Virus record (IMG/VR): IMGVR_UViG_3300033514_000020
Coordinates: 1 to 29,996 of that record
Origin: a virus
Taxonomy: Duplodnaviria; Caudoviricetes
DNA: 29,996 bases
Strand: one strand, 5' to 3'
Shown: in pieces, positions 708 through 28,310 of the stretch
Layout of the letters: every line of letters starts with the position of its first letter
Numbering within the stretch: position 1 is the stretch's first letter
Position numbers and translations under genes: made by a program
Notes under the pieces: model-generated
Told to the model about the DNA's origin: nothing
What the model saw: only the letters and a program-made list of their open reading frames with translations
Database searches by the model: none

Positions 708-1912
708 TATTTGTTCTCCATGTTATTTACGCGGTTATTGATGTTCGCTAACGCAGCCAACATCGCACTCATCATTTCTGCATCACCAGTAACCATCTTG
801 CCTTTTGGTGTGTCTACAACTTTGTCTGCTAACGGCGTATTTTCTAAATCTTGTGCCATAACTCCGACACCTGGCTTGTCACTGCCCTTGTATCGATACG
901 AGTAACCAGTAAGATTGTCAAGTAGATCATTGACTTGCTCATCTGTAAGCTCTGTCGTGTCTTTCTTCAGATTCTCGTCACTAAACCAGTCAGTAACTCC
1001 ATTCACGATAGACTCGCCTATACCAGTATTGCTGAGTGCTTTGAGACCAGCACCCCAGTTGCCCGCAGTATTTGCTGATTGCTGACCTAAAGATTGAGCG
1101 TAAGTATTTGACTGACCTGCTCTGCCTTTTGCTAATGCCAATCTGTCTTCGAATACTGTTTGTGGTGCTTGACGACGACTTGTTTCTTCTTTGTTCGCCT
1201 GACCTAAGTTGTATTCTTGGATGTTCTGAGCTTGATTTAGGTTGCCGACTTGTGCTTGATTACGAGTCTGAACATTAGCATTCTCTGTTTGCTGCTTGAG
1301 TTGCGTATTGAACGCATTGATAGCATCTTGTGCCTTCGCTTTAGCTGCTTCTTCGTTAAACGACTGATCACGCATCGACCCAGCTAACGAGCCCGACTTG
1401 CTAATCGCATCTAATGCGCGTTGTTGAGCCAAAGCAGCAACATCAGTGCCTTGTCGCGACATTCGATCAGCAGCACCTTGCTCTGCCATCATACGACCAG
1501 CAAGTTCTTGACCTGATCCAGAAATACCACGACTTGCCATCGAGTTCTGAAGTGCTGATTGCTCACCACGAAGCTTAGTAGCTTCTTCGATGTTGATGTC
1601 ATTCAACTTCTGGCGATCTATAGCTGTAAGACCACCTTCGTTACCTATTTGCTGTAGCGATGACAGCGAATCGAGTTGAGCGTTGTATAGCTTCGGATCT
1701 GTGTTTGCTTTATACAGCTCCGAGTTTTGCTGATACATCGTCGTAGCCATCTCGGGCGTGATCTGCCCTGATGACACCATTCGCTGTAACGCAAGCGTGA
1801 GCTCTTGCTCAGTAGGTACCGGAACATCCTTGAAGTAAGTCTCTGATGTTTGATACTGTTGTGAGCTCGAAGAGTCCTCTGAGTCACCAAATAAATCGCT
1901 GAACCATCCCAT
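707..1912 (-). CDS. Putative ejection/pilot-type virion protein with C-terminal peptidase S74-like (intramolecular chaperone) domain
   Basis: MGWFSDLFG N-terminus and a Q/A/N-rich helical body. The C-terminus has FSDENLKKD...YSYRYK...GVMAQDLE plus a terminal coiled coil, matching the S74 pattern. It lies downstream of the nozzle gene. Confidence 0.7.
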   Translation of the reverse strand: MGWFSDLFGDSEDSSSSQQYQTSETYFKDVPVPTEQELTLALQRMVSSGQITPEMATTMYQQNSELYKANTDPKLYNAQLDSLSSLQQIGNEGGLTAIDRQKLNDINIEEATKLRGEQSALQNSMASRGISGSGQELAGRMMAEQGAADRMSRQGTDVAALAQQRALDAISKSGSLAGSMRDQSFNEEAAKAKAQDAINAFNTQLKQQTENANVQTRNQAQVGNLNQAQNIQEYNLGQANKEETSRRQAPQTVFEDRLALAKGRAGQSNTYAQSLGQQSANTAGNWGAGLKALSNTGIGESIVNGVTDWFSDENLKKDTTELTDEQVNDLLDNLTGYSYRYKGSDKPGVGVMAQDLENTPLADKVVDTPKGKMVTGDAEMMSAMLAALANINNRVNNMENK

Positions 1913-1933
1913 AGTGTTATTCCTTTATAGTGT

Positions 1934-1940
1934 TATTTAT
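1934..1940 (-). promoter_or_regulatory. ATAAATA box (T4-late-like)
   Basis: 21 nt upstream of the ATG at 1912. Confidence 0.55.
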
Positions 1941-1945
1941 GCGTC

Positions 1946-3853
1946 TTACCAAGTGCTATCACTTGATTCGCTGTATCCGCTGTAAGACGGACCGCTATCA
2001 GTCTCAGTCGTATTTGATCCGCCCCAGTTGCCTGAATCGAACCCTGATCCTGCACCAGTATTTAGGCCGCCATAGTCGGTTGTGGTTCCTGTTCCGCCGT
2101 TTTCTGGTGAGCTGTAAGCCATTGCTGGAGACCAGCTCGGTGCTACGGCAGCTTCGTATTTAGATGAGCCTGTGCCCCATTCTGCTGAGTTAAATCCTGT
2201 GCCAACACCAGTTAGCGGCGCTCCTACTCCGCTTGCTGAATCTACACCACCTAATGTTGTTGTATTGACTGTCGGTGTGTAGACGCCTGTCTTGTCTAGA
2301 GCTGCTACTGATCCGTATGGCTCTAATCCAACTAAGTTGCCTACTGCTCGTGCTGTGTCGATACCAAACATGTTTAACACGCCGAGTAAGAACCCTGCTC
2401 CTGGTACCATTGCGTTTGCGATGTTGTTGACGACTGAGTTAGCGATCTTTGGATTCTCAGAGATAAAGTCATAAAGCTGGTTGCCGAAAGTTCGACCTGT
2501 GTATGGATCCACCCAGTTTGCTTCATCGCCTTGCACGAATGAGTCGCTGCTACTGCCGCCTGTGTTGACATAACCAGCATTCTTTAGGTTGTTTGCGATT
2601 GCAGAGCCCATAGCAGCTTGCTCAGCGACCATAGCAGTCTTTCTATTAGAGTAAGTCTGCACTTGCTGGTTAAGTGTGTTGATTGCGTCGTTGTATGACT
2701 GAGTTTTTGTGCCTTTCTCAAGATTGATGTCCTTACCTTGGTTGCCAATAAGGTTATTGAGTGCACGATAACGAGCTATGTCTTCGTTTGACGCAACATC
2801 ACCTGCTTTAAGGTAGTTAGCATTTTGCGGCAGCACAGCCTTCGAGTTTACACCAGTTAAATCTTGCTGACCATAACTACGCAGTTGCTGGTTCTTTGTT
2901 GCGATGTCATTGAGTGCGTTCTCATTCCAACCCATACGATCTAATGTTGTGCGAACTGAGTTGTCAATCGTTGATAATGGCGCTATTCCGTTTATGATCG
3001 CGTCAATCTTTGATAAGTTGACAGCATCTTCTGCTTTTGCTTGCTCAAGCTTCTGATTTACCTGGACTTGATAGCCCTCTAATGCACCGCCTGTACCAGC
3101 AATCTTACCTATAAGACCAGCTCGCGTATCAGCGGCAGTCTTTTGCGCTTGTTGCACAGCCTGATCTGCTTCACTGAGTGTCTTATCCATAACAGTGCCA
3201 AGAGGAGCTAACGCATTCGACGCATCATAGACCTTATCGCGTGCTTCGTCTGTGTTCTGTAGTAACATCTGGTTCATCGACATGCCACCACGACTATACG
3301 GATTAGGTGCTATCTGTCGAAGTAACTCAGTTTGACCACCAGCAGTTTTGACCAGATTACTAGTATCTGCCGCCTGTTTGATCGCTGTTGACGCAGGACT
3401 CCATAACTCAGTCGATCCAGCCACTGTTGGGCCGCTATAAGTGCCGGATAGCATCTTATTCCAGCTTGCTGTGTCATTCGCATCATTAAATGACGTCGGA
3501 GATGCTACAGCCTTATCTACAAGTCCTTGATTTAGCGTCGGTGTGTTCGTCTGTACCTGAGTGTTGAACGTCGATTTTGCTTGATCAACAGCAGCCATAG
3601 CATCAGTACCTCGTTTTGCTACTGAGTTGGCAACATTCGTACCAAGTTGAGCTGCTTGCGGCTTGTTTGTGTCAAGATAGTTTTGTAAGTTGACGAACGA
3701 GCCCGATGCAGTCGGCGCCTTGTTTGTCTGACCACCACCGCCTTGACTGATAACAGATGCTCCTGTGCCTAAAGTTGCTGGTCCTGAGTCACCTAAGTTC
3801 TGAATCGGCTTAGTGTTCTCTTCATCTGCTTTTGGTTTTGTTATGTATGCCAT
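1946..3853 (-). CDS. Putative internal virion/ejection protein
   Basis: 635 aa, rich in A/Q/N/T/G/S, with one hydrophobic segment (GAGFLLGVLNMFGI). Its position after the tail nozzle genes matches podovirus gene order. Confidence 0.6.
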   Translation of the reverse strand: MAYITKPKADEENTKPIQNLGDSGPATLGTGASVISQGGGGQTNKAPTASGSFVNLQNYLDTNKPQAAQLGTNVANSVAKRGTDAMAAVDQAKSTFNTQVQTNTPTLNQGLVDKAVASPTSFNDANDTASWNKMLSGTYSGPTVAGSTELWSPASTAIKQAADTSNLVKTAGGQTELLRQIAPNPYSRGGMSMNQMLLQNTDEARDKVYDASNALAPLGTVMDKTLSEADQAVQQAQKTAADTRAGLIGKIAGTGGALEGYQVQVNQKLEQAKAEDAVNLSKIDAIINGIAPLSTIDNSVRTTLDRMGWNENALNDIATKNQQLRSYGQQDLTGVNSKAVLPQNANYLKAGDVASNEDIARYRALNNLIGNQGKDINLEKGTKTQSYNDAINTLNQQVQTYSNRKTAMVAEQAAMGSAIANNLKNAGYVNTGGSSSDSFVQGDEANWVDPYTGRTFGNQLYDFISENPKIANSVVNNIANAMVPGAGFLLGVLNMFGIDTARAVGNLVGLEPYGSVAALDKTGVYTPTVNTTTLGGVDSASGVGAPLTGVGTGFNSAEWGTGSSKYEAAVAPSWSPAMAYSSPENGGTGTTTDYGGLNTGAGSGFDSGNWGGSNTTETDSGPSYSGYSESSDSTW

Positions 3854-3861
3854 GTTCTATC

Positions 3862-4281
3862 CTATAAAATGAGGAATGATGCTGTGTATTTCGTGCTGTT
3901 CTTCAATCCAGTAATAAATCTAACCTGGATCTGCCCCGGTGATGCTAAAATCCAATCAGTTATGACGGTTGCTTCTTTGATCATGCTCCCATTCGTCTCA
4001 TAAATGTGACCTAACAGCAAGTGTGTCGGGTAAGTCTTAAACGGCCAAGCTAATCCGACGTCGTTAAAGGTCTTGCTTGCGACATACGTGCTTGGCGTAG
4101 TAAAAGTCGTCGTAACTGACACGCATTGAATGTTGTCAGTTATATTTATGCCCTTGTTAAGAATGTTGTATGTCTGCTCATTGAATGAGTTGATCGGATA
4201 GATCATTCGCTCGACCCAATCTCCTTCGACATCGCCAAAATCCTCTAACATTAGCCGTCTTACTTCTGGTAAGTTTGACAT
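3862..4281 (-). CDS. Hypothetical tail-associated protein
   Basis: 139-aa ORF coupled to the nozzle gene by a TAATG overlap, with a beta-rich C-terminal half. Confidence 0.5.
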   Translation of the reverse strand: MSNLPEVRRLMLEDFGDVEGDWVERMIYPINSFNEQTYNILNKGINITDNIQCVSVTTTFTTPSTYVASKTFNDVGLAWPFKTYPTHLLLGHIYETNGSMIKEATVITDWILASPGQIQVRFITGLKNSTKYTASFLIL

Positions 4282-7943: not shown

Positions 7944-7952
7944 TATTGCTCC

Positions 7953-8204: not shown

Positions 8205-8212
8205 TATTTATA
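8205..8212 (-). promoter_or_regulatory. TATAAATA box (T4 late consensus)
   Basis: 15 nt upstream of the ATG at 8189; overlaps the upstream TAA. Confidence 0.55.
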
Positions 8213-11709: not shown

Positions 11710-11716
11710 TATTTAT
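11710..11716 (-). promoter_or_regulatory. ATAAATA box
   Basis: Just downstream of the capsid terminator and 27 nt upstream of the fibre ATG. Confidence 0.65.
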
Positions 11717-11725
11717 GCCGATGTT

Positions 11726-11763
11726 AAAAGAGCGTATAACCTCTTATGAAGATTATACGCTCT
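11726..11763 (-). terminator. Rho-independent terminator after the major capsid gene
   Basis: 11-bp stem AGAGCGTATAA/TTATACGCTCT (11729-11739 and 11753-11763) followed by a U run on the minus strand. Confidence 0.7.
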
Positions 11764-11789
11764 CGTGTCACTAACTTACAAGATAAATC

Positions 11790-13046
11790 TTACGAGATAC
11801 CTGTCAGTTTAACCAGTTTTGCTGGCGTTTCTGCGATGATAGCCTGGTTGCTGTATAAGCGATACTCGAAGCCTGCGTTGCTCTGCAACTGCGTGAAGAT
11901 CTCGCCTGTTTTGCTACCTGGGATTTCGAAGCCGATGTCTTGTGCACCAATACGACGGATACGCTTGACCGGAAGAATGAAGCCTTCGCCTTCTTTGATG
12001 AACGGGTGAGCTACGATTTCCATTTCGCCTGACTGACCGTAGAACTTGAGGCTATTTGCACCTTGTTCGAACGAAGTCGTCTTATACGAACTGTCATACT
12101 TGCGTAAAGCAGCTTGATCATTCAGCAAAGTTGTCCACTTCTTCGGATTGATGTAAACCTTAACCTTCTCATCCAATCCGCCACGCTCAACTGCGATAGC
12201 CATAGCATTTTGCAATGCGAGGAATGTCAACGCACCACCAACTGCGTAGGTAGAACCTTTCCACAAGTTGTAAACGGAGTTGTCAATACCGAAGATCGAG
12301 CCAGATGCAGTCAAGATACGGTCGATACCAGACATTTCGTTACCAACAGCACCAGCGAAACGAACATAAGTGTCAGCACCAGCCATCGCGACGATAGCAG
12401 TGATGTCAGCAGCAACACCAGTGATCAGCATTGTGCGAGCCGAACTGTCATACGACGTAACGATAACAGAAGCTGTCGTGTTAACCTTAGTGTTATCTGA
12501 TACTTTGAAGATGTCCAACGTTGCATTTTCGCAACCAGCCCAAATACCACCAGCCCAACCAGCAGCAGCGAAGGTCAATGTGCAGGTTGTAGCAGTTCCA
12601 GCTGCGTGCGAGTCAACAAGGCCAAGACCAGTCGGGCTTGCACCATACCACATCGACAGTTCCAAACGCTTTGTGAGCGAGCCCATCATATTCTCAACTT
12701 GTAGGCCCGTTGAATCATAGAATGCGTTCTTGCCAGATGCGGCACGAGCAGCAGCTTCGTAGTCCATAGTTGAGCGAAGAACCATCTGCGCACCTTGAAC
12801 AGTTGCGTCTTGGGTCTTCATTGAGATAGCTGCATTCAATGCGAACGCACCAGCGTCAGCAGCAGCATAAGTCACACCGTGTTCCATGTTTACGACAACA
12901 GGCTGGTGATACTTGTTACCGAGTTGTTTAGCACGGGATTCAAACGGGATTTCCTTGACAAGCAAGGCATTTTCAGGAATAAGCGTTACGAGTTTGTCAG
13001 CATAGACGTCCTTAAACAACCCGTTTAGATCAGTTGTAGTTGTCAT
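11790..13046 (-). CDS. Major capsid protein
   Basis: Start revised to the ATG at 13046 (AAGGAGA SD), giving ~418 aa. The LNGLFKDVY N-terminus and IAETPAKLVKLTGIS C-terminus fit HK97-fold capsids. It lies after portal and scaffold and is followed by a terminator. Confidence 0.85.
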   Translation of the reverse strand: MTTTTDLNGLFKDVYADKLVTLIPENALLVKEIPFESRAKQLGNKYHQPVVVNMEHGVTYAAADAGAFALNAAISMKTQDATVQGAQMVLRSTMDYEAAARAASGKNAFYDSTGLQVENMMGSLTKRLELSMWYGASPTGLGLVDSHAAGTATTCTLTFAAAGWAGGIWAGCENATLDIFKVSDNTKVNTTASVIVTSYDSSARTMLITGVAADITAIVAMAGADTYVRFAGAVGNEMSGIDRILTASGSIFGIDNSVYNLWKGSTYAVGGALTFLALQNAMAIAVERGGLDEKVKVYINPKKWTTLLNDQAALRKYDSSYKTTSFEQGANSLKFYGQSGEMEIVAHPFIKEGEGFILPVKRIRRIGAQDIGFEIPGSKTGEIFTQLQSNAGFEYRLYSNQAIIAETPAKLVKLTGIS

Positions 13047-13121
13047 TATAATTTCTCCTTTAGATAAAATGACGTTTTGATACATTTATGAGTTAGCGGT
13101 CACCTGACGGCATCACTCAAG

Positions 13122-13128
13122 TATTTAT
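13122..13128 (-). promoter_or_regulatory. ATAAATA box upstream of the capsid gene (a second copy at 13234-13240)
   Basis: 75 nt upstream of the ATG at 13046. Confidence 0.5.
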
Positions 13129-13198
13129 TGTGTTACTGTATCGTCAAATCAGTTTACCACGTAGGGCTGTTTGTTCGATGCTTTTGCTGCTTCTCGAT

Positions 13199-13837
13199 TT
13201 AGATAGCCTTAGCGTCATTCTCGAGTATAACTTTATTTATGACTGTAAACTTTTTCTTTGCGTTTTGGGCATCTTTTCTTGCTTGAGACCACGGTTTTCC
13301 TTTTAACGCTGTAGAGATGTTGTTGCGAGCTGCTTGCGTTGGCGTCGGCATCTTTCTGCCTTTAACTGCGTTAGCTAAGTTAGCTAAATGTTCTGGGGAT
13401 TTTTGCCTGCCCGTATGAGCAACTGATAGCTTATCTTTAGTTTCTTGAGTCTTCTCGCGGCCAGTTAGTTTAGCTGATACTATCGCGTTTCGTTCTTTAG
13501 TGTGTGGAATTCCTGCTCTCAAAAACACTTGTTGTTTAGTAGAAGGATCCTTATACGATTTATTCAAGCAAAAATCTGATTGTATTGATTGCTTTATGAT
13601 GTGCTGCTCTGCCCACCAAGCTGTATCGCTATCGCTATACACCTGAACGACTTCTGCTCTAAATGCATCGTCGCCGTATTGTTTGCGTTGTGCTTTGATG
13701 ACAGCCGAATGAGTAAAATAATGCTTCCACAGATCTTCTTCTGGGTTTCGCGTATTCATTATCTTTGCTGTTCGTGATCCGTGATAGAACTCACCAGTAA
13801 GTTTGTTTGTGATTCGATAAACATAAGGTTGATACAT
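13199..13837 (-). CDS. Free-standing GIY-YIG homing endonuclease with NUMOD3 repeats (Seg-like)
   Basis: YVYRITNKLTGEFYHGSR N-terminal motif and repeats such as KTQETKDKLSVAHTGRQKSPEHLANL. Inserted between scaffold and capsid. Confidence 0.8.
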   Translation of the reverse strand: MYQPYVYRITNKLTGEFYHGSRTAKIMNTRNPEEDLWKHYFTHSAVIKAQRKQYGDDAFRAEVVQVYSDSDTAWWAEQHIIKQSIQSDFCLNKSYKDPSTKQQVFLRAGIPHTKERNAIVSAKLTGREKTQETKDKLSVAHTGRQKSPEHLANLANAVKGRKMPTPTQAARNNISTALKGKPWSQARKDAQNAKKKFTVINKVILENDAKAI

Positions 13838-13861
13838 AGCCTACCCTTCAGTTAAACAAGT

Positions 13862-13890
13862 AGTATAACATAACGATAGACTATGCTCAA
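13862..13890 (-). promoter_or_regulatory. Sigma70-like promoter upstream of the GIY-YIG gene
   Basis: TTGAGC-17 nt-TATACT with an extended -10 TG. Confidence 0.5.
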
Positions 13891-13899
13891 TCATTTCGA

Positions 13900-14805: not shown

Positions 14806-14888
14806 GATGTTTTCCTCGCAAATTGTAGAGTGTCGTCTGTCAAACGACTAAATCACGCTCTGATCACTATGACTAGAGTAGCGATTTG

Positions 14889-15245
14889 TTACTTCTTAAA
14901 AAAGAAATCCAGTATTTGATCTTTGTATAACACGATTAAGGCCCATGCTGCACCTAATAATAGAGTTACGCGTTTGATAAATTCCTTATTCTTCGATACT
15001 TCTTCAGTGATAACTGCTAATGCTTCTCCTATCTTAGCCCAGTTTGATGCTTCTTCAGCTCCGTGTTCCTGTTGCCAGAGCTGTTGAGCTATTATGTGAT
15101 CGTCTAACTTCTTTTCTATTCGAGCCTGTGTTGCTGCTGTTGCTAATGACCGCTCTTCTAAGGTAGCAATCTTTACGTCAGCTATGTCTACTCTCCTATC
15201 TTTATGGTATTCTTCTTCTGTCACGGGCTCTCTCCTGTCAAGCAT
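14889..15245 (-). CDS. Coiled-coil protein with C-terminal transmembrane helix (holin/XhlA-like architecture)
   Basis: Coiled coil followed by VTLLLGAAWALIVLY. The function is inferred only. Confidence 0.4.
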   Translation of the reverse strand: MLDRREPVTEEEYHKDRRVDIADVKIATLEERSLATAATQARIEKKLDDHIIAQQLWQQEHGAEEASNWAKIGEALAVITEEVSKNKEFIKRVTLLLGAAWALIVLYKDQILDFFFKK

Positions 15246-15261
15246 AAGTGTTGATAATACT

Positions 15262-15268
15262 TATTTAT
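15262..15268 (-). promoter_or_regulatory. ATAAATA box
   Basis: Overlaps the portal stop; 16 nt upstream of the ATG at 15245. Confidence 0.5.
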
Positions 15269-17244
15269 GCTTGTCCAGGTATAGCCTGATTGGGTGTCGG
15301 TGCTTTCTCTCCTGTTAGCGGATTCGTTGGCATGTTAGGCATGTTCGGTTGCATCTTCTGCACGTTATCTGCCATAGTCATCGGGTTGTTTGCATCACCG
15401 TTACCTTGTGGCATCGGAGCTGGTGGAGCAGATTGAATCGGCTGTTGACCTAAGATAGTTAGTAATGATGCCAAACTCGGATCCGATAAGAACTTGTGGT
15501 GCTCCATGATGTGGTTACCAACCATAGTTACGACAGCTGCATCTGCTCTAATAGCCGGGTCACTTACGATAGCTTTGTGCTCCAGGATGTGTAACACATG
15601 TTCATCTGTAATCATAGCCATAACTGAGTTGCCTTCTGCCATAGACTCATTCTCTGAACGGATGGCTAATAGCTCTGTAGTCTTACCTTCAATAAGCGGA
15701 TCTAAGTTTCCAGTCTGGATGACCTGTAGTAACTGATCTGGTGTCTTGACTAGTCCGGCTTGTATCATCATCTGAGCTAACTCAACTTTACCTGCTGTGG
15801 TGCGTGTCATCGGATTACCTACGTCGACAGTAACGCGATTGACTTGAGCTAAATCGTCACCCGTAAACTCTTTCATAATGCCTCGATTGTGCTTACCTGC
15901 AATCTCTGCAATACGTGGCACTGAAGCATAATCACGAAGGATGTTGATCGTTGATGTTCCTACATCTTCTAACAACTGAACATAAGATTGTTGTAGTTGT
16001 TGAGCGAACTGAATGCTCATTGACTGCACGAGTGCTAATGCCGCACCTGACTGTAAGGACGATTCTGGGTTACCACGAGCTACTGAGTTGACACCTGAGA
16101 TGATTTCCATAGTGTGCTCTAACTGCCCTAAGAAGTTAAAGATCTCAACAGGAGTAGATGTAAGATTAAGTGGCTCTGGCTTACCTTGTGCTGGATTATA
16201 CGTAATGATGTTCATGCCATTGAGCTGTGATCCTGTTGCGGTACAGCCAATCGGTATAGTAACATTCTGCACGCCAAACGTGAGCTGATTAGTTAGAATA
16301 GTCGAATACAGATCATTCACGCCATCTTGTAATGCGAGCAGGTCGAATGCTGGGCTGTATCCTTGAGTAGAACCTGTTAAGTCTGATGGTGTCACTCTAA
16401 ATACTGGCACACCTGTGTATGGTAGTGGTCCGTCAATCAGCACGATCTCTGAGTCGATGTAAGATACGATACGACCATTCGGCATTGAGTCTGACTTCTC
16501 ATGATAGAAGTCATACACTTCGATTAAGTCTGACGATGTCTGGATCTTATCTGTAGTAACACGATACGATGTTCTTGGATCCTCATCTGATGCTACGGCT
16601 AAAATAAGCTCTGCCATCTCTGGATACTTTGCTGCTAAATCGTATTTGTTTGCTGTTCGTTTGATGATCACCCATTGACTATCAGCCCAACTCTCAAGAT
16701 GCACGTCACGGATTAGATTGAGTGGTTCAATAGTGCCAAACTCGATGTCACCAGCTTGTCGTTCTGCTCCTGTGTCTGGGTCAGTGGCATACACCTCACC
16801 AATGGTAGCATTCCAAGTCGTAGTAACGAATGACTCACCATACACTAAGCACTGCTCAACTGCAGAACGAAGGTTACGCTCAAGCCGTTTCTCACGCATG
16901 TAATAGTCAAGCAATCCTCTTGCTAAAATAGTCTGGGCTTGTGACTTTACATCAGTATTTGTAGCACGTGGTTCGAATGCTGGTCGTTGACTAATCGTAA
17001 GGTTCATTAAGTGTTGGATGAAGTTCCTGTAATGATTTACGTTGATTCGTTTGTATTGTTGATTCTCGCCAGTTGTCTTTATCTCTGGTGCTCGAGTCGA
17101 AGCAGAGTTATACAGATCATAGCTCTTAGCCCATAGTGCCATAAGGCCATTAGTCTGTAAGTTCTGGTAGTAATCATCTACTCGTTGCTCGAGTTCAGCT
17201 ACAACTTCTTCGGTTGGGAGTGATGCAAAATACTGGTTATCCAT
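15265..17244 (-). CDS. Portal protein
   Basis: Start revised to the ATG at 17244 (MDNQY..., AAGGA SD), giving ~659 aa. It follows terL and has P22-type features (ISGVNSVARG...SGAALAL, P/Q/M-rich tail). Confidence 0.85.
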   Translation of the reverse strand: MDNQYFASLPTEEVVAELEQRVDDYYQNLQTNGLMALWAKSYDLYNSASTRAPEIKTTGENQQYKRINVNHYRNFIQHLMNLTISQRPAFEPRATNTDVKSQAQTILARGLLDYYMREKRLERNLRSAVEQCLVYGESFVTTTWNATIGEVYATDPDTGAERQAGDIEFGTIEPLNLIRDVHLESWADSQWVIIKRTANKYDLAAKYPEMAELILAVASDEDPRTSYRVTTDKIQTSSDLIEVYDFYHEKSDSMPNGRIVSYIDSEIVLIDGPLPYTGVPVFRVTPSDLTGSTQGYSPAFDLLALQDGVNDLYSTILTNQLTFGVQNVTIPIGCTATGSQLNGMNIITYNPAQGKPEPLNLTSTPVEIFNFLGQLEHTMEIISGVNSVARGNPESSLQSGAALALVQSMSIQFAQQLQQSYVQLLEDVGTSTINILRDYASVPRIAEIAGKHNRGIMKEFTGDDLAQVNRVTVDVGNPMTRTTAGKVELAQMMIQAGLVKTPDQLLQVIQTGNLDPLIEGKTTELLAIRSENESMAEGNSVMAMITDEHVLHILEHKAIVSDPAIRADAAVVTMVGNHIMEHHKFLSDPSLASLLTILGQQPIQSAPPAPMPQGNGDANNPMTMADNVQKMQPNMPNMPTNPLTGEKAPTPNQAIPGQA

Positions 17245-17260
17245 AGTGAGTTCCTTTATC

Positions 17261-18688
17261 TTATTTAGTCCTGCTGAACATAGATGCAAATTGAGTTACA
17301 TTCGGATCTGTGTTCATTATTGGATTGACCCACATGTTTGTCTGATCTAATCCGTGATTTAGTGGTATTGGGTTAGTAAAAGTATCGATACATCTGCAAA
17401 GATAGACTAATGCTGCGAGTGCGTCATAGTGGCCATACACCTTACTGCGAGCAAAGCCCATCTTACCATTCTGTGAGTTCTTACTCCATACTCCGTAGTT
17501 TAGACAGCCTATAGTCTGTTCGCATCGTGGATGGATGATGAGCTTACCTGTTGCGACCATAATACGCACCTGATTGACCATAGCCTCAAGACTAGTCTTC
17601 GTAGTCGGACTGAACGGTAGGTTGTGCAGTCTGGTTAAGTCCTGAATCAGTATAAGGTTATTATTGTCAGCTACCCTTAGGTATGGTTGTTGCGGTGACC
17701 ATAGTCTTTTCTCAATAGCTCTGATCTCATCTGCCAGCTTGTCAGTAGTCATCTCTGGTCCGTTGATAACATGCTCATCTTCTACGATCAGTGTGGATTT
17801 AGCGAAGTCGTAATAAGCAAAAAGAGCAACAGTAAAATCGCGCACACCTGTATCCATTGCAACATACTTATGATAGTATTGATAGTATGGATCTTTTTCA
17901 ATAATCTTGACATGTTCTACTTCCTTCCATTCCGGTATGATAGCCTGCTCTGAGTCCGTTACATCCTCGCATAGATACTCACGGCGGTAGGTTGTTGATG
18001 CTATGCCACCTGCTTCTTTAACATACATCTCTTTTACATCGTCAGTGATGGAAGTATTATCGTCAATCGTAAAGACTGATACATCACCTTTCTCGGCACA
18101 ATCTTTGAATAGATAGTATGAGTCATGGTCTGGTGTCTTACTCGGAGTTGAGCTAATGAGTGTAAATCCGTTACATGTCAATGTCTGTGGTATTAGAATA
18201 GATTGGACGATGTATTCAAGATTGTCCATGAAGCCTGCTTCGTCGATGAGATTTAAGTCTGATTTAGTTCCGCGTAAAGTCTCGTGGTGGCCATTATCAG
18301 TGCCTGACATATGTATCTGACTGCCATTGTTGAACTGATACATGCCGTCAAAGCCTTTGAATGTTGGCTTCATGTTGGTTGGGCAGTCCTCGAAGATTAC
18401 AGCCATAATCGGGAAGATTGACTTTCTGAGTGATCCTGCTGTTGGTGCAGCAAATCGTATCATTGAGTTTGGGTTGCGGATAGCATACTCAATCGCGATA
18501 AGGCATAAGATGTGTGTCTTGCCAAATCGTCGTGCGCATCGTATGAAGTGCTTCAGTGATGTTCGGTTCTTGATAGCATTCCACATTGCGTGATACAGGA
18601 TGTGTTGATGTTCCTTGAGCTTGAATGATAACCTACCACGAGCCCAGCACTCTTTGATTAGGTCTGCTCTCGTGGTAGTGATTCTCAT
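17261..18688 (-). CDS. terL: Terminase large subunit
   Basis: Walker A ARRFGKT, LRG...LIDEAGF Walker B, ISSTP motif, YRREYLC linker, RNase H-like VAMDTG and a terminal HYDALAALVY. Confidence 0.95.
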   Translation of the reverse strand: MRITTTRADLIKECWARGRLSFKLKEHQHILYHAMWNAIKNRTSLKHFIRCARRFGKTHILCLIAIEYAIRNPNSMIRFAAPTAGSLRKSIFPIMAVIFEDCPTNMKPTFKGFDGMYQFNNGSQIHMSGTDNGHHETLRGTKSDLNLIDEAGFMDNLEYIVQSILIPQTLTCNGFTLISSTPSKTPDHDSYYLFKDCAEKGDVSVFTIDDNTSITDDVKEMYVKEAGGIASTTYRREYLCEDVTDSEQAIIPEWKEVEHVKIIEKDPYYQYYHKYVAMDTGVRDFTVALFAYYDFAKSTLIVEDEHVINGPEMTTDKLADEIRAIEKRLWSPQQPYLRVADNNNLILIQDLTRLHNLPFSPTTKTSLEAMVNQVRIMVATGKLIIHPRCEQTIGCLNYGVWSKNSQNGKMGFARSKVYGHYDALAALVYLCRCIDTFTNPIPLNHGLDQTNMWVNPIMNTDPNVTQFASMFSRTK

Positions 18689-19110
18689 TCGTCGTTCCTC
18701 AGATGCTTATTCAGAATGATCTCGAATTCTTCGTCATCAATGCCCTGCAGCGGGTTGAATGATACATTCGTATCTTGAGTGATTTGCTGTCGTTCAACAG
18801 GTCTCCCTGCAGTGTAAGTCATGACTGCTTGATACGCTTGAGTATCTCCTGTCATAGCCTTATTCATCTGAACAACGGTCATGTTATTCAGTGTTGCCAA
18901 AAACTCTGGATTTACTTGCCAAATAGCATCAAGGCTTTCTCTTAGAGTTTTGAGCATCTTATTGTTCTTTCTGGTCATGTTAGCTCTTTCTTTTTTAATG
19001 GCCTTCTTGATTTCTTTCTCCTCATCTGATAGCTCGGCCCAATACACTGATGAGTGTCTGTTGCCATTCTTGAGTATCACTGGTGATGGATTTGGTTTAT
19101 TCGCCATCAT
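18685..19110 (-). CDS. Probable terminase small subunit
   Basis: 141 aa, overlapping terL by ATGA, with a KAMTGDTQAYQAVMTYTAGRPVERQQI motif typical of TerS. Confidence 0.65.
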   Translation of the reverse strand: MMANKPNPSPVILKNGNRHSSVYWAELSDEEKEIKKAIKKERANMTRKNNKMLKTLRESLDAIWQVNPEFLATLNNMTVVQMNKAMTGDTQAYQAVMTYTAGRPVERQQITQDTNVSFNPLQGIDDEEFEIILNKHLRNDE

Positions 19111-19821: not shown

Positions 19822-19828
19822 TATTTAT
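19822..19828 (-). promoter_or_regulatory. ATAAATA box heading the terminase block
   Basis: 62 nt upstream of the ATG at 19759. Confidence 0.55.
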
Positions 19829-19995: not shown

Positions 19996-20099
19996 CGGTC
20001 GATCCACTGTCGGTAAGATCTGAAGTAGCTGACCATTTCTGATGAGGTCATCTTGCTGAGTTGTTCGTAAGTTGCTCTTGTGAATTTATTCATAATAGT

Positions 20100-20410
20100 A
20101 TTTACCTTTAAGGACTTACACACTGTAGCTGTTTTGACTAATGAGTGAAATTAGATTTTTGTCGTCGTTGTCAAAAAAAAAAATAAATTATTTTCTGCTA
20201 CAAACGCAAAAACGTCTACACACTACACGGGTTTTATACACACTTGCTCTAATTCCACACTTTGACCCCAAAAACAGCTCTAATTTAGCTTCCAGTCCAC
20301 ACAAAAACTCCTGAATAACATGTAAAGTAGTATGAATTTCACACTTTAATAAAAAACATGGTGTGTAAAAACTCATTAGTTAGTGTGTTCTGAGTGTGTA
20401 AATTCCTGCT
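20100..20410. other. Putative replication origin / non-coding control region
   Basis: ~300-bp AT-rich gap directly downstream of the helicase gene, with a poly-A tract and nine CACAC/GTGTG cores. Confidence 0.45.
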
Positions 20411-20462: not shown

Positions 20463-22322
20463 TTAATCTGGGTAAATTAGCCCCCTAACAGTCTTACCAC
20501 CTGGCATCGAATGCTCTACAATGTATTCATCGTAGCAGGTCTTATACCCGTATGGAGAAGCAATACCTTTATACCATAGCTGACCTTCTATAGTCTTACC
20601 AGTCTTCGCACTCATTGAAGCACCACCTGTAATGCCGATTCGCTTACGTGGAATCATACTATAACCGTGAGCCTCGAGCATCGGCGTAATTTCACTAACA
20701 AGATTATTTTTCTGCTTGATGAACTGATCAGATTTACTATCACCGGCACAAATTTTATAGATTTCAAGAACTTCGTAAATACTAATCTCTTTAACATTGC
20801 GCTCAACGATGTATTCAACAGTCTTACTAATAGGTGACTGTTTTGCTATCTGCAGATCAGCCCAGTCAACATCACGTAACGGTTCAAGAGCAAATCTACA
20901 ACCTTCTTTAGGTGCATGTTTGTAATGCAAATAATTCATAAACTCTTGCAGCACCGCTCTCTCACGCCATAGCTGGGGGCAGCTTCTTAGGAATGTGTCG
21001 CCTTTATCAAATGTAGTCGGGTAATGATCCTTATCAATACCGAGAGCATCTAATGCTTGATCTACAAATCCTGGTTGCATTGCATTCATAATTTCATACG
21101 TTGCCTCTGCAAATGTAAGCCCTTTAACAAGACTGATTGGGCTTACTCGCATCATTTGCTTACCGTCCTCAAGCGGTAGAGGGAAGGTCATCTGGTTAGT
21201 GCCCATTGCCCAAGAGATAGTGTTGTCAATTTGAAACTCTGGACCATACTTTACTTTAACATAGTCATCTGGTGAGCCTGTCATGTTCTTGATCTTGTTC
21301 CAATCCTCTCTTGACGGTACCTCATCAATATACATGAATACTTTGCCGATCTTAAAAGAGTTAAAGTTACCATCAATAACGTCCCAAATAGCTGTGAAGC
21401 ATAGCTCTTTACCTAACATACCTGGGATCACATAATCATACAACGCATTCTTACCTTTCTTTCCTTTGCCGTATTGAACTGGCATCGGCAAAAAGTTATT
21501 TCCGATGTCAGCGCACGTAATAGCATAAATCCATCGCTCAAGCCATTCTATAGTCTTCTGCTTAGTCCCAATCAGATCGCCGGTTACCGGATTAGCTATT
21601 AGCTCGCTGCCACTCATTGCTACGAGCAGTGCCTTCATAACTGGTGGGCATTCAGGTACTGGGTCGTTATCTGATCGACTGTCTGGTGTCATGATGTTGC
21701 TTAGGTCGACCATGTTATAGATAGCAGCATCAGGAATGTGTCGCATGTTACCGAGCTTAGTATAGACCTTACGATCAAACCCGAAGATCTCCTCAACCTT
21801 AGTTTCTGGATTCATAATCTTGATGTCCTTACCTTCAACAATAAGACGTAAGTAACGCTGTGATGCCGGACTACTTAGCTCTACAAAATTCATACCCATC
21901 GATGCAGCTGGGTAGAAGTGAAGTTCTGATGTTTTACGCTCTTGTTCTGTGCCTTTGTCGATGTCAACATAATTCGCCTTTAGAAAGTAACGCGGTGTCG
22001 TGTCACGATGAAAACAGAAGTTATACTGGTTGTATGCTGCTAATGCTGACTTAAACGCTTGCCATTTAGACTCATCTGTTTCTTCTCCCTTCTCCTCTTG
22101 CGCCTTCGCTTTCTTCGCTTTCGCCTTCTCTTCTCGTTGCATTTCGGCTGCTGACTTCTTGTTGTTTGCGATTTCTTCGAGCTCTGCGTCGAGATCGATT
22201 AATTTCTTCTCGAACGACTGAGTTAATTCATCTGACGCATCACTACGGCTAATCTTACGTAGGGCGTCAATTTGTTGCATTACTGACTTGCGTTCGGTTG
22301 CTACTATAGTCTTAGTTCTCAT
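20463..22322 (-). CDS. SF3 helicase (NrS-1/D5-like)
   Basis: Walker A variant GKGKKGKN, Walker B FMYIDE and motif C MGTN. It lies directly after the primase-like gene. Confidence 0.75.
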   Translation of the reverse strand: MRTKTIVATERKSVMQQIDALRKISRSDASDELTQSFEKKLIDLDAELEEIANNKKSAAEMQREEKAKAKKAKAQEEKGEETDESKWQAFKSALAAYNQYNFCFHRDTTPRYFLKANYVDIDKGTEQERKTSELHFYPAASMGMNFVELSSPASQRYLRLIVEGKDIKIMNPETKVEEIFGFDRKVYTKLGNMRHIPDAAIYNMVDLSNIMTPDSRSDNDPVPECPPVMKALLVAMSGSELIANPVTGDLIGTKQKTIEWLERWIYAITCADIGNNFLPMPVQYGKGKKGKNALYDYVIPGMLGKELCFTAIWDVIDGNFNSFKIGKVFMYIDEVPSREDWNKIKNMTGSPDDYVKVKYGPEFQIDNTISWAMGTNQMTFPLPLEDGKQMMRVSPISLVKGLTFAEATYEIMNAMQPGFVDQALDALGIDKDHYPTTFDKGDTFLRSCPQLWRERAVLQEFMNYLHYKHAPKEGCRFALEPLRDVDWADLQIAKQSPISKTVEYIVERNVKEISIYEVLEIYKICAGDSKSDQFIKQKNNLVSEITPMLEAHGYSMIPRKRIGITGGASMSAKTGKTIEGQLWYKGIASPYGYKTCYDEYIVEHSMPGGKTVRGLIYPD

Positions 22323-22324
22323 TT

Positions 22325-23242
22325 TTATGCCTTTCTAAATTTAGATAAAAGTTGTTCGGTTGCTGCTTTATTGTTCTTATACGTCGGATTAAACTTTCTT
22401 ATCTCGTTGATAATACGACCTACATCTGGGGTCTTCGGCGTTATCTTCTTTGTCATTGTTTCGTATTTGCCATTATACGTAGCATCTGGCCAACGGCTGC
22501 GACATTCGATGATAGCTTGTGCTTCGCCTACAGACCTACATACTGCCCTTACAAGCCAGTATCTATCTTCGTTCGGCAGTATTGGTCTGTGCTTCTTTAA
22601 CTCATCTAATGCCTTCTGTAAATCTGATACTGCCATCGGCTTATAGACCTTTTGTGCTACAACTGGCTTTACAACTGGTACAAACCATCGCCAATCTAAT
22701 ACAATGCCATCCTTACTCCATGCATCTTTGTATGCTAATCCTTCTTCTGAGCAAGCCGGAGTGTAAAACGACCTACTATGGCTTACACAAGACCTATCTA
22801 CTTCATCACCAGCAAACTCTAAAAAATTCGCCTTACGTGCTTCCCACTCATCGGCTGGGCAGATGTCAGTAAACGGTAATACAATCCTAAACTTCTCACA
22901 CCCTGCGTCGTTGAGTATGTGTCTATAGCTTGTGTAGCCAAGATGCCGAAACTCAATAAAGCGGGGAATGATGTTCTCCAGTTTTGCTCCGTTGCCGTCA
23001 TAGTCTAAAATAAGACCATCATATCCGATAACATTCTCGAAACACCTTTTGTCTGTTCTGTTCTCGTCATAAGGTGCATCTAAATCAGTTAGCCTATCGA
23101 AGGTGCACAAGTTAAACATACAGCCGTCCTTATCTGCTTGCACTTCGTGAGTTTTGAATTGACTGCATAGCTCATTCCATGTTACATCAGCAAACGTGTT
23201 GACACATACGTCTTTGTAGTTGCTAAAGTAAGTTACTCTCAT
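22325..23242 (-). CDS. AEP-superfamily primase(-polymerase) with C-terminal helical domain
   Basis: LILDYD (DxD), YTSYRH, KFRIVLPF and downstream D...FYTP motifs. Confidence 0.7.
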   Translation of the reverse strand: MRVTYFSNYKDVCVNTFADVTWNELCSQFKTHEVQADKDGCMFNLCTFDRLTDLDAPYDENRTDKRCFENVIGYDGLILDYDGNGAKLENIIPRFIEFRHLGYTSYRHILNDAGCEKFRIVLPFTDICPADEWEARKANFLEFAGDEVDRSCVSHSRSFYTPACSEEGLAYKDAWSKDGIVLDWRWFVPVVKPVVAQKVYKPMAVSDLQKALDELKKHRPILPNEDRYWLVRAVCRSVGEAQAIIECRSRWPDATYNGKYETMTKKITPKTPDVGRIINEIRKFNPTYKNNKAATEQLLSKFRKA

Positions 23243-23670: not shown

Positions 23671-23755
23671 TTGTTTCTCCACATAAAGTGGGTATTTAGA
23701 TAGTGTGGTGTTACCCTTGTAACATAACTCTAACGCTACCGCTCCCCAGCGGTTT

Positions 23756-23860: not shown

Positions 23861-23867
23861 TATTTAT
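23861..23867 (-). promoter_or_regulatory. ATAAATA box heading IR-A and the primase/helicase block
   Basis: 6 nt before IR-A and 30 nt after repeat copy A. Confidence 0.55.
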
Positions 23868-25219: not shown

Positions 25220-25227
25220 TATTTATA
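25220..25227 (-). promoter_or_regulatory. TATAAATA box heading IR-B
   Basis: The ATAAATA lies 30 nt after repeat copy B; intergenic. Confidence 0.6.
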
Positions 25228-25256: not shown

Positions 25257-25309
25257 TTTTGGCTATACGCAATCGTAGTAAGATTCGCCGTATGTCTCAT
25301 GGAAGCGAC
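25257..25309. repeat. 53-bp direct repeat, copy B
   Basis: Overlaps the last codons and stop of the GIY-YIG ORF; 50/53 identical to copy A. Confidence 0.95.
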
Positions 25310-27191: not shown

Positions 27192-27218
27192 GTTAAACTC
27201 CTTGTAGTTGTGTATAAG

Positions 27219-27225
27219 TATTTAT
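27219..27225 (-). promoter_or_regulatory. ATAAATA box
   Basis: Intergenic, 27 nt upstream of the ATG at 27191. Confidence 0.6.
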
Positions 27226-27237
27226 GACGAATCAAGA

Positions 27238-27534: not shown

Positions 27535-27538
27535 GCAT

Positions 27539-27937
27539 TTACTTTTTGCTTTTAGTTCTTCCGTATGCAGGATTACCTGCACCGCATCTACGAGCCCTCG
27601 CCTCCTCACTCCATTTAGTATGATGCCCTCCTTGCTTTCCGCGAGTGCCATCTAAAAAGTTCTGAACAAATGTTTGACAGAAGATGTTATCTAAAGTGTA
27701 TCCGCCTTTGTCACCAATTCTCGACATACAGTATTTTCCTTTACCGACTCCACGCTCACTAAAATGCCCTGTATTAAGCCACCACGTTATCCACTGGTCA
27801 AATGTTAAATCCCATTCTATGTTTCTCTTATAGATTGCTTGCCCTCGTTGAAGACCCCATTTCTTGTATGCATCTTCGATCTCGCTATTGGTTAATAAGT
27901 CAGTGTATGTCGGCATTGATGTGTATCTCATATACAT
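27539..27937 (-). CDS. HNH-like (beta-beta-alpha-Me) endonuclease
   Basis: RNIEWDLTFDQWITWW...YCMSRIGDKGGYTLDNIFCQTFVQN followed by a NUMOD-like SEEARARR..GNPAYGR tail. Confidence 0.65.
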   Translation of the reverse strand: MYMRYTSMPTYTDLLTNSEIEDAYKKWGLQRGQAIYKRNIEWDLTFDQWITWWLNTGHFSERGVGKGKYCMSRIGDKGGYTLDNIFCQTFVQNFLDGTRGKQGGHHTKWSEEARARRCGAGNPAYGRTKSKK

Positions 27938-28016
27938 TTACTTATCACTCAGCAGAACGGCGACCATAATTAGCCGCCGTTCTTATCGGTACACAACTAC
28001 CGATGACAACACAATC

Positions 28017-28280
28017 TTACTTCTTTGTAAACAGACCTACTGCGTTAAACAGAGACACTACGCCAGACGACATAGCACTGATAGTTGGCCATACAGCCTC
28101 GAATGTATGCTCTGCTTGATCAGCAACAGTCATTGCGGATTGCACAGTAGTCTTGATGACTTCCATCTTTGCTGCTCCGTTACCACCAGCTGGCATTGCA
28201 GCTTCGATGGCTTTAATAGCTTCGATGATGATAGGTAGCAACTGAAGTGCGACTTTGATGATACTAATGAATGATCCCAT
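28017..28280 (-). CDS. Small amphipathic/hydrophobic protein, possible holin-like
   Basis: 87 aa with an AAGGAG SD, ATAAATA upstream and hydrophobic helices at both ends. Confidence 0.45.
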   Translation of the reverse strand: MGSFISIIKVALQLLPIIIEAIKAIEAAMPAGGNGAAKMEVIKTTVQSAMTVADQAEHTFEAVWPTISAMSSGVVSLFNAVGLFTKK

Positions 28281-28303
28281 TTAACTCTCCTTATAAGTAA
28301 AAG

Positions 28304-28310
28304 TATTTAT
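28304..28310 (-). promoter_or_regulatory. ATAAATA box
   Basis: 23 nt upstream of the ATG at 28280. Confidence 0.55.

Follow-up and report, generated by a model that had tools for sequence, protein, structure and literature searches.

The window analysed here is the 29,996-nt stretch of the virus record IMGVR_UViG_3300033514_000020 (Duplodnaviria; Caudoviricetes), hereafter G000. The record, rated 71% complete, represents either a fragment or a circle that was not closed, and its minus strand holds all long ORFs. The gene content comprises a primase, a helicase, a terminase and a virion module. A primase-like gene (22325-23242) and a DUF5906 helicase gene (20463-22322) make up the replication block (20463..23242). 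The packaging and head block (11790..19110) contains a small-terminase candidate with a weak match (18685-19110) and the genes for the large terminase (17261-18688), the portal (15265-17244), a scaffold-like protein (13900-14805), a GIY-YIG homing endonuclease (13199-13837) and the major capsid protein (11790-13046). The same strand encodes a 607-aa tailspike-like protein, an S74-chaperone tail fibre (707-1912) and, at 19505-19759, the sole non-structural protein conserved across the clade. A relative, G002, has a complete genome of ~30.8 kb that includes a full virion module and encodes a small family-A polymerase of its own. It has only two non-structural proteins in common with G000, one homing-endonuclease-like and the other an 84-aa protein without an informative match.

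The heptamer TATTTAT occurs 12 times on the plus strand, equivalent to 12 copies of ATAAATA (the box) on the coding minus strand; the opposite strand has a single ATAAATA, at 6619. These 12 minus-strand and one plus-strand coordinates agree exactly with the original prediction, and the variants that it had claimed, GTAAATA at 724 and 20099 and CTAAATA at 17262 and 23693, were all recovered, along with two further intragenic CTAAATA copies (2059, 2157) absent from its list. At the high-coordinate end, a box on the minus strand, as are all those that follow (AATAAATA, 28304..28310), shares bases with the TAA stop of ORF 28307-28432; 23 nt separate it from the ATG of ORF 28017-28280, with AAGGAG in between. 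Two intergenic boxes come next, one (CATAAATA, 27219..27225) 27 nt before the ATG of ORF 27045-27191 and one (TATAAATA, 25220..25226) preceding a doubtful 42-aa ORF (25076-25204). Upstream of the replication block, the CATAAATA box at 23861..23867 overlaps the TAA stop of ORF 23864-24211 and is followed by a G+C hairpin-like leader, and a CTAAATA variant (23693..23699) stands 22 nt before ATG 23670, the start of the leading gene in the primase/helicase block. A GTAAATA variant (20099..20105) with an uncertain downstream gene lies after the helicase terminator region, and a CATAAATA box (19822..19828) overlapping a TAA stop is found 62 nt upstream of ORF 19505-19759.

Within the packaging and head block, a CTAAATA variant (17262..17268) inside the end of the terminase gene precedes the portal ATG (17244) by 17 nt, and the CATAAATA box at 15262..15268 overlaps the portal TAA stop, an arrangement identical in G002. 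The 3' end of the GIY-YIG gene harbours a CATAAATA box (13234..13240), and an intergenic AATAAATA box (13122..13128) lies 75 nt before the capsid ATG (13046). The ATG of the tailspike-like gene is 27 nt downstream of the CATAAATA box at 11710..11716, which is syntenic in G002 and in another relative, G004. Farther on, a TATAAATA box (8205..8211) overlaps the TAA stop of ORF 8208-9410 and precedes ORF 7953-8189 by 15 nt, with a syntenic box in G002; an intergenic CATAAATA box (1934..1940) is located 21 nt before the ATG of the S74 tail-fibre gene; and a GTAAATA variant (724..730) precedes the ATG of ORF 3-707 by 16 nt, its Shine-Dalgarno (SD) sequence beginning 4 nt after the box. The CATAAATA copy at 4143..4149, inside ORF 3862-4281, is probably non-functional. 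As originally described, boxes precede virion genes and the small-ORF region as well as the primase/helicase block.

ATAAATA is strongly overrepresented. Counting both strands, G000 has 13 copies where 5.44 +/- 2.23 are expected, a number reached in none of 100 dinucleotide shuffles, and on the coding strand the box ranks first among the 21 A5T2 heptamers (12 copies vs 1 on the other strand). Eight of the 12 fall within -80..-9 of called starts, windows that cover 10.1% of the sequence (P = 3.6e-6). TAAATA is the top-enriched hexamer in the upstream windows of both G000 (11/18, P = 1.8e-7) and G002 (12/24, P = 1e-8). The original caveat about stop codons was well founded: five of the 12 boxes overlap the upstream ORF's TAA in one register, and nine extend to TAAATAA, which provides stops in two frames. 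Positional enrichment persists after control for these stops. When all ORF and stop-codon bases were removed from G000, the remaining 1845 bases contained five copies against a mean of 0.37, with a maximum of three in 1000 dinucleotide shuffles. The corresponding counts and shuffle means are 4 and 1.10 for G002, 4 and 0.70 for G004, and 2 and 0.36 for locus L107; the reverse complement is absent from the strict intergenic sequence of all four. The box is confirmed as a real, positioned and conserved element without a -35.

Alignment of 37 sites, hand-picked from upstream and noncoding lists, revealed eight conserved positions, A-TAAATA-[A/C], and no -35 element. According to the available account, the T4-family late promoter consists of TATAAATA at -13 to -6, likewise without a -35 (PMC1524935), and the core of our box is indistinguishable from it, as had been noted. 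Sigma-70-type promoters are not enriched (33 vs 41.7 expected; 17 vs 23.0). An intrinsic-terminator-like hairpin (11728..11764, minus strand; 16 bp followed by UUUU) lies after the capsid gene and 12 nt ahead of the box at 11710..11716, in keeping with the box that had been placed directly after a capsid terminator. Its fold has a z of -4.3, and none of 200 shuffles folds equally well. G002 has an equivalent hairpin ahead of its box, and in both genomes the order is terminator hairpin, box, SD, ATG. Ahead of the G002 polymerase operon, our reading by eye is two terminator-like hairpins, then a box and, after it, an operator-like palindrome. The sixth position after the box, which would be +1 by T4 geometry, is a purine in 33 of 43 sites, and the fifth is T in 20 of 43.

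Some of these features would also suit a signal acting on RNA or in coding context, such as a multi-frame TAAATAA stop, an A/U-rich translational enhancer or a processing site. The five stop overlaps and nine TAAATAA extensions point that way, as do the 6 of 31 sites in which the SD begins within 6 nt of the box, since a start 6 nt downstream would cut into that SD; in G004, moreover, one box lies upstream of the post-capsid hairpin, not after it. Such a non-promoter role is nevertheless improbable. Enrichment holds in ORF- and stop-free sequence, boxes directly follow terminator hairpins, beyond which few read-through transcripts should remain, the exact heptamer is retained where generic A/U richness would suffice, and the predicted start is biased towards purines.

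The motif is conserved in related phages. The box recurs at syntenic sites in three relatives, after the portal stop and ahead of the capsid, tailspike, small-ORF and S74-fibre genes, although protein identity is only 36-70%. The portal gene of G002 is also preceded by CTAAATA, and its S74-fibre site reads GTAAATA where G000 has ATAAATA. Across 79 loci from otherwise unrelated small phages, ATAAATA is the A5T2 heptamer most biased towards noncoding sequence: 172 of 232 coding-strand copies fall in the noncoding 17%. At least three noncoding copies are present in 25 of the 79 loci, 11 loci have no box at all, and the distribution of the box within the terminase family is clade-specific. Of 28 box-rich loci, five have at least two noncoding extended -10 sites, so that in those phages the box forms a second class beside the host consensus. 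At locus L092, canonical TGTATAAT promoters with -35-like hexamers (TTGCAx) cluster within a single small-ORF region, and ATAAATA boxes lie ahead of the genes for the polymerase, the small terminase and others. No noncoding extended -10 site occurs in G000.

In line with the earlier impression, searches of the record found no sigma factor, RNA polymerase (RNAP), clamp or DNA polymerase in G000. By profile search, no gp55, sigma-70 region 2 or T7-type RNAP was detected in five records and no gp45 in three, while T4 and T7 positive controls worked. PF00940 had no match in G000, G002, G004, G005 or G006 (T7 control, 1e-110), none of 30 G000 proteins scanned matched a sigma or transcription-factor family, and two complete, more distant relatives also have no sigma factor or RNAP. 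Between box-rich (28) and box-poor (36) loci, no protein family tracks the box except the terminase (17 vs 8), and the early genes of the two-class phages have no family in common.

The explanation that we tentatively prefer takes the phage as an autonomous, podovirus-like one of ~30 kb and the boxes as likely promoters ahead of most of its gene blocks. In ordinary single infection the host core RNAP would read them by means of a specificity factor, for which the searches yielded no candidate, and transcription would start ~6 nt downstream of the box. As a first guess, the factor may be a small, fast-evolving phage-made protein acting like T4 gp55. Arguing against a phage-made factor, boxes also lie ahead of early-looking small ORFs in G000 and of the replication operon in the complete G002; such a factor could not serve these at the onset of infection unless another promoter exists. 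A host sigma factor, either the primary one of the host lineage or an alternative one, might instead read the boxes directly, with no phage factor. This would fit their presence ahead of all these gene classes, the lack of any other promoter class in G000, the noncoding bias in phages with no structural or replication modules in common, the failure of any phage protein family to track the box, and its clade-specific distribution within the terminase family, as expected of a host-linked signal. We consider direct reading by a host sigma rather unlikely, because the box does not obey the sigma-70 -10 rule, the spacing of A at -11 and T at -7 being, as we take it, off by one, and because the canonical extended -10 promoters of five of the 28 box-rich loci imply that their hosts use the ordinary consensus. 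The sole clue to the host comes from a 2-kb contig, binned with a Burkholderiales MAG, whose capsid gene is 44% identical.

The boxes could also belong to a phage-encoded polymerase, located in the unassembled part of G000 (completeness being 71%) or represented in G002-like phages by a ~390-aa 'mini polymerase' of family-A fold acting as an RNAP. The 394-aa protein of G002 is predicted to adopt a family-A polymerase fold (pLDDT 86) with an N-terminal part that reads as winged-helix-like, and proteins structurally similar to it include T7 RNAP (Z 9.3), yeast mitochondrial RNAP (Z 8.6) and a 404-aa chain of N4 RNAP II (Z 8.0). A box lies shortly upstream of the gene in many loci, and mitochondrial-type single-subunit RNAPs typically use short A/T-rich promoters. 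DNA polymerases, however, score higher (Z 11-12) and account for all of the best 50 Foldseek matches, and direct repeats copying part of the gene lie just downstream of it, as at a replication origin. Among the 79 loci with the gene, only 25 are box-rich and 11 are boxless, and G000 is boxed yet has no mini-polymerase gene by a profile search lacking its own positive control. Given also the null result for PF00940 and the eight conserved positions, far fewer than in T7-type promoters, we judge this origin of the boxes very unlikely.

In the T4 family, gp55 reads the late promoter together with gp33 and the gp45 clamp. The original prediction saw a candidate virophage-like phage whose gp55-type late promoters would stay inactive unless a co-infecting T4-like or jumbo phage supplied the gp55/gp33/gp45 machinery. 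What stands of it is a real T4-like box without a -35, present ahead of all gene classes, for which no reader of the phage's own was found; helper dependence is not supported, and we regard it as highly improbable. In its favour, the core is identical to the T4-family late box, tolerated variation at -13 included, and the CTAAATA variant occurs as in Aeh1, on the available description (PMC1524935); against it, the corresponding description of phage rV5 reports a T4-late-like motif without gp55, gp33 or gp45 and invokes no helper (PMC3606486). Also in its favour, gp55, gp45, sigma and RNAP were not found in G000 or the complete G002 with controls working; on the other side, small phages normally have neither a sigma factor nor an RNAP. 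For the GIY-YIG endonuclease (13199-13837), the closest cultured relatives, at <=32% identity, occur in what are presumably large myoviruses of the T4 and ViI kinds, a further point in its favour. Late transcription of the T4 type works only once a clamp has been loaded onto the template, and cytosine DNA is destroyed or silenced by T4 itself, both of which count against a helper of this type. So do the phages' own replication genes and complete virion modules: the complete 30.8-kb relative has the boxes, a virion module and a polymerase, and neither G000 nor G002 yielded an integrase or any other means of entering with or awaiting a helper. Also against the virophage reading is the spread of the box among modularly different small phages, since the 25 box-rich loci of 79 would have to be a whole assemblage of obligate parasites, and some box phages have ordinary early promoters.

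In concept, the helper reading resembles the virophages Mavirus and Sputnik, which share the late promoter of their giant-virus helper, and P2/P4, whose late promoters are cross-activated, in that a parasite has its genes under the late promoter of its helper. For those systems the helper has been identified and dependence on it demonstrated; G000 offers motif resemblance alone. The nearest bacterial parallel is provided by MiniFlayer and MulchMansion, Streptomyces satellites that encode their own encapsidation machinery, one of them non-integrating; as far as they are described in the available account, they are missing key replication genes, and the tail of one is adapted for attachment to its helper (PMC10690885). 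G000 differs in having a primase and a helicase, and G002 a polymerase, with no helper link seen. With T4-family late promoters, the G000 boxes share the ATAAATA core, the lack of a -35 and a variable first base, and with Aeh1 the CTAAATA variants, on the account cited above (PMC1524935); the purine bias 6 nt downstream also matches T4 geometry. Unlike T4, G000 and the complete G002 have no detectable gp55 or gp45, the G000 boxes extend beyond late genes, and the genome is that of a ~30-kb podovirus-like phage, not a large myovirus. Coliphage rV5 is similar in having an A/T-rich, T4-late-like motif (TggTAaAAtA) upstream of late genes, with no gp45, gp33 or gp55 homologues in the description available; it is a large myovirus with many genome-wide sigma-70 promoters and a looser motif (PMC3606486). 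In G000, by contrast, sigma-70-type sites are unenriched and the exact T4 core is the dominant upstream motif.

The viral record IMGVR_UViG_3300033514_000020 (hereafter G000) consists of 29,996 bases, is classed as linear and is estimated to be 71% complete (CheckV). All of its long ORFs are encoded by the minus strand. The replication genes recognised there by family scans are those for a primase-like protein (22325-23242) and a DUF5906 helicase (20463-22322). Packaging and head proteins are the large terminase (17261-18688), a candidate small terminase with a weak match (18685-19110), the portal (15265-17289) and the major capsid protein (11790-13085). The scans also named a tail fibre that carries an S74 chaperone domain (707-1912) and a GIY-YIG homing endonuclease of the SegE type (13199-13837), whose gene lies between those for the scaffold and the capsid. 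Homing-endonuclease-like genes are unusually many, with five listed. The other four, in window coordinates, are an HNH/NUMOD-like gene (27539-27937), a 56-aa NUMOD3-like piece (26875-27045) and, by our own reading of the sequence, a gene with a NUMOD1-like helix-turn-helix (27238-27651) and a 225-aa protein that begins like a GIY-YIG endonuclease (25263-25940). A megablast search for near-identity with 25 kb of G000 found no match in cultured phages. The portal has only distant matches among cultured phages, the best being Silvanigrella phage CP017838.1 at 27% identity. Scans of viral contigs found no locus related to the helicase, the GIY-YIG endonuclease or the end ORF (28640-29995), and a scan of metagenome contigs found none related to the helicase. 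A look-up of sequencing runs for 7900-17400 of the window listed none, of RNA or otherwise.

The 3'-open and 5'-open ORFs at the ends of G000 (window 1-707 and 28640-29996) share a frame and, without loss of a base, fuse into a 687-aa ORF that is uninterrupted by a stop and rich in Glu, Lys and Ala; an in-frame match of this kind would occur by chance alone in one case out of three. The end ORF has no homologue at E<=1e-3, and pairwise alignment to the syntenic protein of the closest complete relative, G002, is weak (E 0.019 and 0.037). G000 may be an unclosed circle of about 30 kb, similar in length to the complete G002. At 28600-28650 of the minus strand, the 14-nt unit ATGAGGTCAAATCA occurs three times in tandem, spanning the interval from where the 451-aa end ORF stops to the ATG of ORF 28419-28601.

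The box ATAAATA, which has the core of the T4 late promoter, is found 12 times on the coding strand of G000 and once on the other, and each position at which the original prediction had placed a box is correct. Shuffled sequence gives 5.44 +/- 2.23 copies, and 0 of 100 shuffles attained the 13 observed in all. The coding strand is A-rich, which favours ATAAATA by composition; the box is still the commonest of 21 words of the same composition. Within windows from -80 to -9 before starts, TAAATA is the top enriched 6-mer both in G000 (11 of 18 copies in 10.1% of the sequence, P 2e-7) and in G002 (12 of 24 copies in 6.7%, P 1e-8). The original prediction had cautioned that boxes overlap TAA stops. 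Five of the 12 do overlap a stop, but stops do not explain the signal, which persists in sequence free of ORFs and stop codons. When all ORFs and stop codons are removed, five boxes remain in G000 against a shuffle mean of 0.37, a count reached in 0 of 1000 shuffles; the corresponding values are 4 versus 1.10 in G002, 4 versus 0.70 in the relative G004 and 2 versus 0.36 in the related locus L107. The reverse complement is absent from the strict intergenic sequence of all four. As had been noted from the sequence, boxes also precede the small-ORF region (28304, 27219 and 25220), whose genes look early, and the primase/helicase block (23861 and 23693); in G000 the box is not restricted to late (virion, lysis) genes.

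G000 and G002 have a structural module in common (terminase 58%, capsid 70% identity), which is also present in G004 and the loci L107/L108 and, more distantly, in G003, G005, G006, G007/G008 and the Silvanigrella phage. The motif is conserved in related phages: boxes stand at syntenic places in G000, G002, G004 and L107. They are absent from those places in G003, G005 and G006. Among 20 metagenome terminase loci of at least 7 kb, TAAATA is one of the top three noncoding-enriched 6-mers only in L107, L108 and L104, the last being G002 itself. The first 163 bases of G002 (L005:1-163) are repeated at its end (L006:15827-15989) with one mismatch and CheckV gives a completeness of 100%; we therefore regard G002, whose record class is 'linear', as a complete, terminally redundant genome of about 30.8 kb. 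Lengths of 31-32 kb are found repeatedly among contigs of the clade. Two further complete relatives, G005 and G006, have 127-base terminal repeats and no transcription enzyme, and look like temperate, ordinary phages. In Silvanigrella phage CP017838.1, the portal and scaffold homologues are preceded not by the box but by a repeated motif of the phage's own, about 20 nt long (…GTAACACTTATAGTTAAAAA…); a search of this phage found no T7-type RNAP.

We aligned 37 sites from G000, G002 and G004, picked from upstream and noncoding lists with the C and G variants included. Only the eight positions A-TAAATA-[A/C] are conserved. T is never found immediately 5' of TAAATA, nor G immediately 3' of it, and the alignment contains no -35 or flanking signal, so that the sites have the form of a T4-type promoter, a short A/T box, (T)ATAAATA, without a -35. 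The information content of the box is only about 13 bits. With L107 added (43 sites), a purine occupies offset 6 after the box in 33 sites and T occupies offset 5 in 20; by the T4 rule, offset 6 would be +1. Of the 43 sites, 31 have a Shine-Dalgarno sequence (SD) and start codon in the next 140 nt, and in six of these 31 the SD begins no more than 6 nt after the box, which fits a start 6 nt downstream poorly. In both G000 and G002, the capsid gene is followed by a strong hairpin with a U-run, a box, an SD and the ATG of a tailspike-like gene. A reading of the motif as an archaeal TATA box was rejected on three counts: T precedes TAAATA in 0 of 37 sites, a strong SD lies between box and start, and the fibre and lyase domains are of bacterial type. 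Sigma-70-type promoters (TTGACA-like and TATAAT-like hexamers spaced 16-18 nt apart) are not enriched in the window, where the two counts, 33 and 17, lie below the expected 41.7 +/- 5.9 and 23.0 +/- 5.0, and noncoding TGnTAnAAT does not occur in G000.

The textbook example of promoter dependence on a phage sigma factor (gp55) together with a DNA-loaded clamp is the T4 late promoter. Family scans of G000, with its estimated completeness of 71%, name no RNAP, sigma factor, clamp or DNA polymerase, in agreement with the original prediction; small phages normally take RNAP, sigma factor and DNA polymerase from the host. Six-frame profile searches at E<=1 gave no match to gp55 (phrog_234, phrog_12791), sigma-70 region 2 (PF04542) or T7-type RNAP (PF00940) in G000, G002, G004, G005 or G006, the gp55 result thus covering both the incomplete G000 and the complete G002. 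T4 gp45 used as a protein query likewise matched nothing in G000, G002 or G004. Positive controls were recovered at 1e-110 (T7 RNAP), 2.5e-70 (T4 gp55) and 4e-150 (T4 gp45). A T7-type RNAP system needs a long conserved promoter of at least 17 bp, and the box has eight conserved positions. A PDB sequence search with three uncharacterised proteins returned no match.

Several proteins were considered individually. A 254-aa protein in the 'early' region (25944-26708; phrog_8198, 86 homologues) has a confidently predicted fold (pLDDT 88), an all-beta, jelly-roll-like sandwich whose structural matches, to viral capsid and phage tail proteins, are weak (TM about 0.2); it was rejected as a clamp on account of this fold and because no clamp is among the matches listed. 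A 125-aa family lies 3' of the sole extended -10 site of G002, and its six members all occur in loci with at least two forward boxes. It was rejected as a gp55-like factor, with an hhalign probability of 0.5% against T4 gp55 and no Pfam match. Only two non-structural proteins are common to G000 and G002. One, the phrog_16521 protein (27539-27937), clusters with NUMOD/HNH homing endonucleases and was rejected as a factor; the other, an 84-aa protein conserved in the clade, has no informative match in the atlas.

G002 encodes a 394-aa protein (L006:11971-13155, equivalent to G002 26971-28155) that has no Pfam, PHROG or PDB sequence match and at least 71 relatives. Its predicted fold (AF2, pLDDT 86) is that of a small family-A polymerase. 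The best structural matches of the model are Klenow, Taq and T7 DNA polymerase (Foldseek E 3e-5; Z 11-12), with T7 RNAP (Z 9.3) and N4 RNAP II (Z 8.0) ranked lower. The N-terminal part is predicted to be winged-helix-like, and D198, K248 and H351-D352 are invariant; five places after the Asp of motif A we read an Ala, not the steric-gate Glu. The gene is carried by 80 viral loci, mostly on contigs of 30-39 kb, and tblastn found no match in cultured phages. Directly 3' of it in G002 are two direct repeats of about 80 nt (L006:13157-13345, G002 about 28157-28345), copies of an internal stretch of the gene that codes for a low-confidence linker. A locus rich in boxes, L092, has four tandem 24-nt repeats in the same relative place (11277-11350). 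The repeats in both are likely to be replication origins.

The 79 loci other than G002 (1.11 Mb) contain 232 ATAAATA on the gene strand versus 61 on the other. Of the 232, 172 fall in the 17% of sequence that is noncoding, the highest share among 21 permutations of the word. Three or more noncoding boxes are present in 25 of the 79 loci, and for 22 of these 25 P<0.01; another 11 loci are without a box. Few of these loci have structural genes in common with G000, and a profile search found no mini polymerase in G000; the box is thus tied neither to one structural nor to one replication module. Of the protein clusters, only the terminase (17 versus 8) distinguishes the 28 box-rich loci from the 36 box-poor ones.

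Some box-rich loci also contain canonical promoters. In L092, a small-ORF stretch has repeated copies of TGTATAAT with TTGCAx about 17 nt upstream. They belong to a cassette of at least five copies (11100-13500 and 15490) that consists of the TTGCAx -35-like hexamer, TGTATAAT, a conserved leader hairpin (…AACAGC-N-GCTGTT…) and 'CTTAAACTCTTAAA', precedes small hypervariable ORFs and looks like an early-gene promoter-leader module. The ATAAATA boxes of L092 stand upstream of other genes, those for the polymerase and the small terminase among them. Two or more noncoding extended -10 sites occur in 5 of the 28 box-rich loci; G002 has one and G000 none. In such loci the box is therefore a second class of promoter beside the host consensus, which makes the host primary sigma less likely as its reader and a switch made in the course of infection more likely.

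We propose that, during an ordinary infection, the boxes would serve as promoters for host core RNAP carrying a putative specificity factor. Our first choice, held tentatively and at somewhat less than even odds, is that this factor would be made by the phage. Against it, the searches found no factor, and boxes precede early-looking genes. The early genes of the two-class phages have no common family, so a switch factor, if one exists, is not recognisable by sequence. Our second choice, possible but rather doubtful, is that a host sigma reads the boxes; the canonical promoters in related phages speak against it. The original prediction had gone from the box to dependence on the late-transcription machinery of a co-infecting T4-like helper. 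This step found no support, and we consider it very improbable that G000 and its box-bearing relatives have genuine gp55-type late promoters without gp55, gp33 and gp45 and borrow that machinery. These phages have replication and virion genes of their own, box-bearing phages form a broad assemblage, and some of them possess ordinary early promoters. No means of awaiting a helper was identified either: scans of 30 G000 proteins and 17 proteins of the complete G002 gave no match to an integrase or partition family.

Under a phage-made factor, our preferred reading, the boxes would point to a new family of promoter-specificity factors. A reader in the host would mean that some host lineage uses an unusual promoter code, and a borrowed one would be a new kind of phage-on-phage parasitism, a bacterial counterpart of the virophages that builds its own virions. 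Whichever of the three applies, the 7-base core of T4 dominates among the upstream signals of small phages in which searches found neither gp55 nor the gp45 clamp, and the complete genome G002 and the 25 box-rich loci among the 79 are natural test cases.

The account of the T4 late promoter in the original prediction is sound as far as the available part of PMC1524935 goes, which places TATAAATA at -13 to -6, describes T at -13 as poorly conserved in other T4-like phages and gives CTAAATA as the form used by Aeh1. The resemblance of the G000 box is exact, yet amounts to those few bits; G000 and G002 differ from the T4 system in that gp55 and gp45 were not found and boxes are not confined to late genes. 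In the literature found, itself accessible in part, TATAAATA and gp55 occur together only for large myoviruses, and a full-text search of it returned no report of a small gp55-less phage with the exact T4 core as a general upstream motif. For rV5, the portion of PMC3606486 consulted already describes a T4-late-like motif, looser than this one, in the absence of gp45/33/55. The nearest bacterial parallels are the Streptomyces satellites, which, in the accessible sections of PMC10690885, encode their own capsids and lack replication genes; the G000 phage differs from them in having replication genes.
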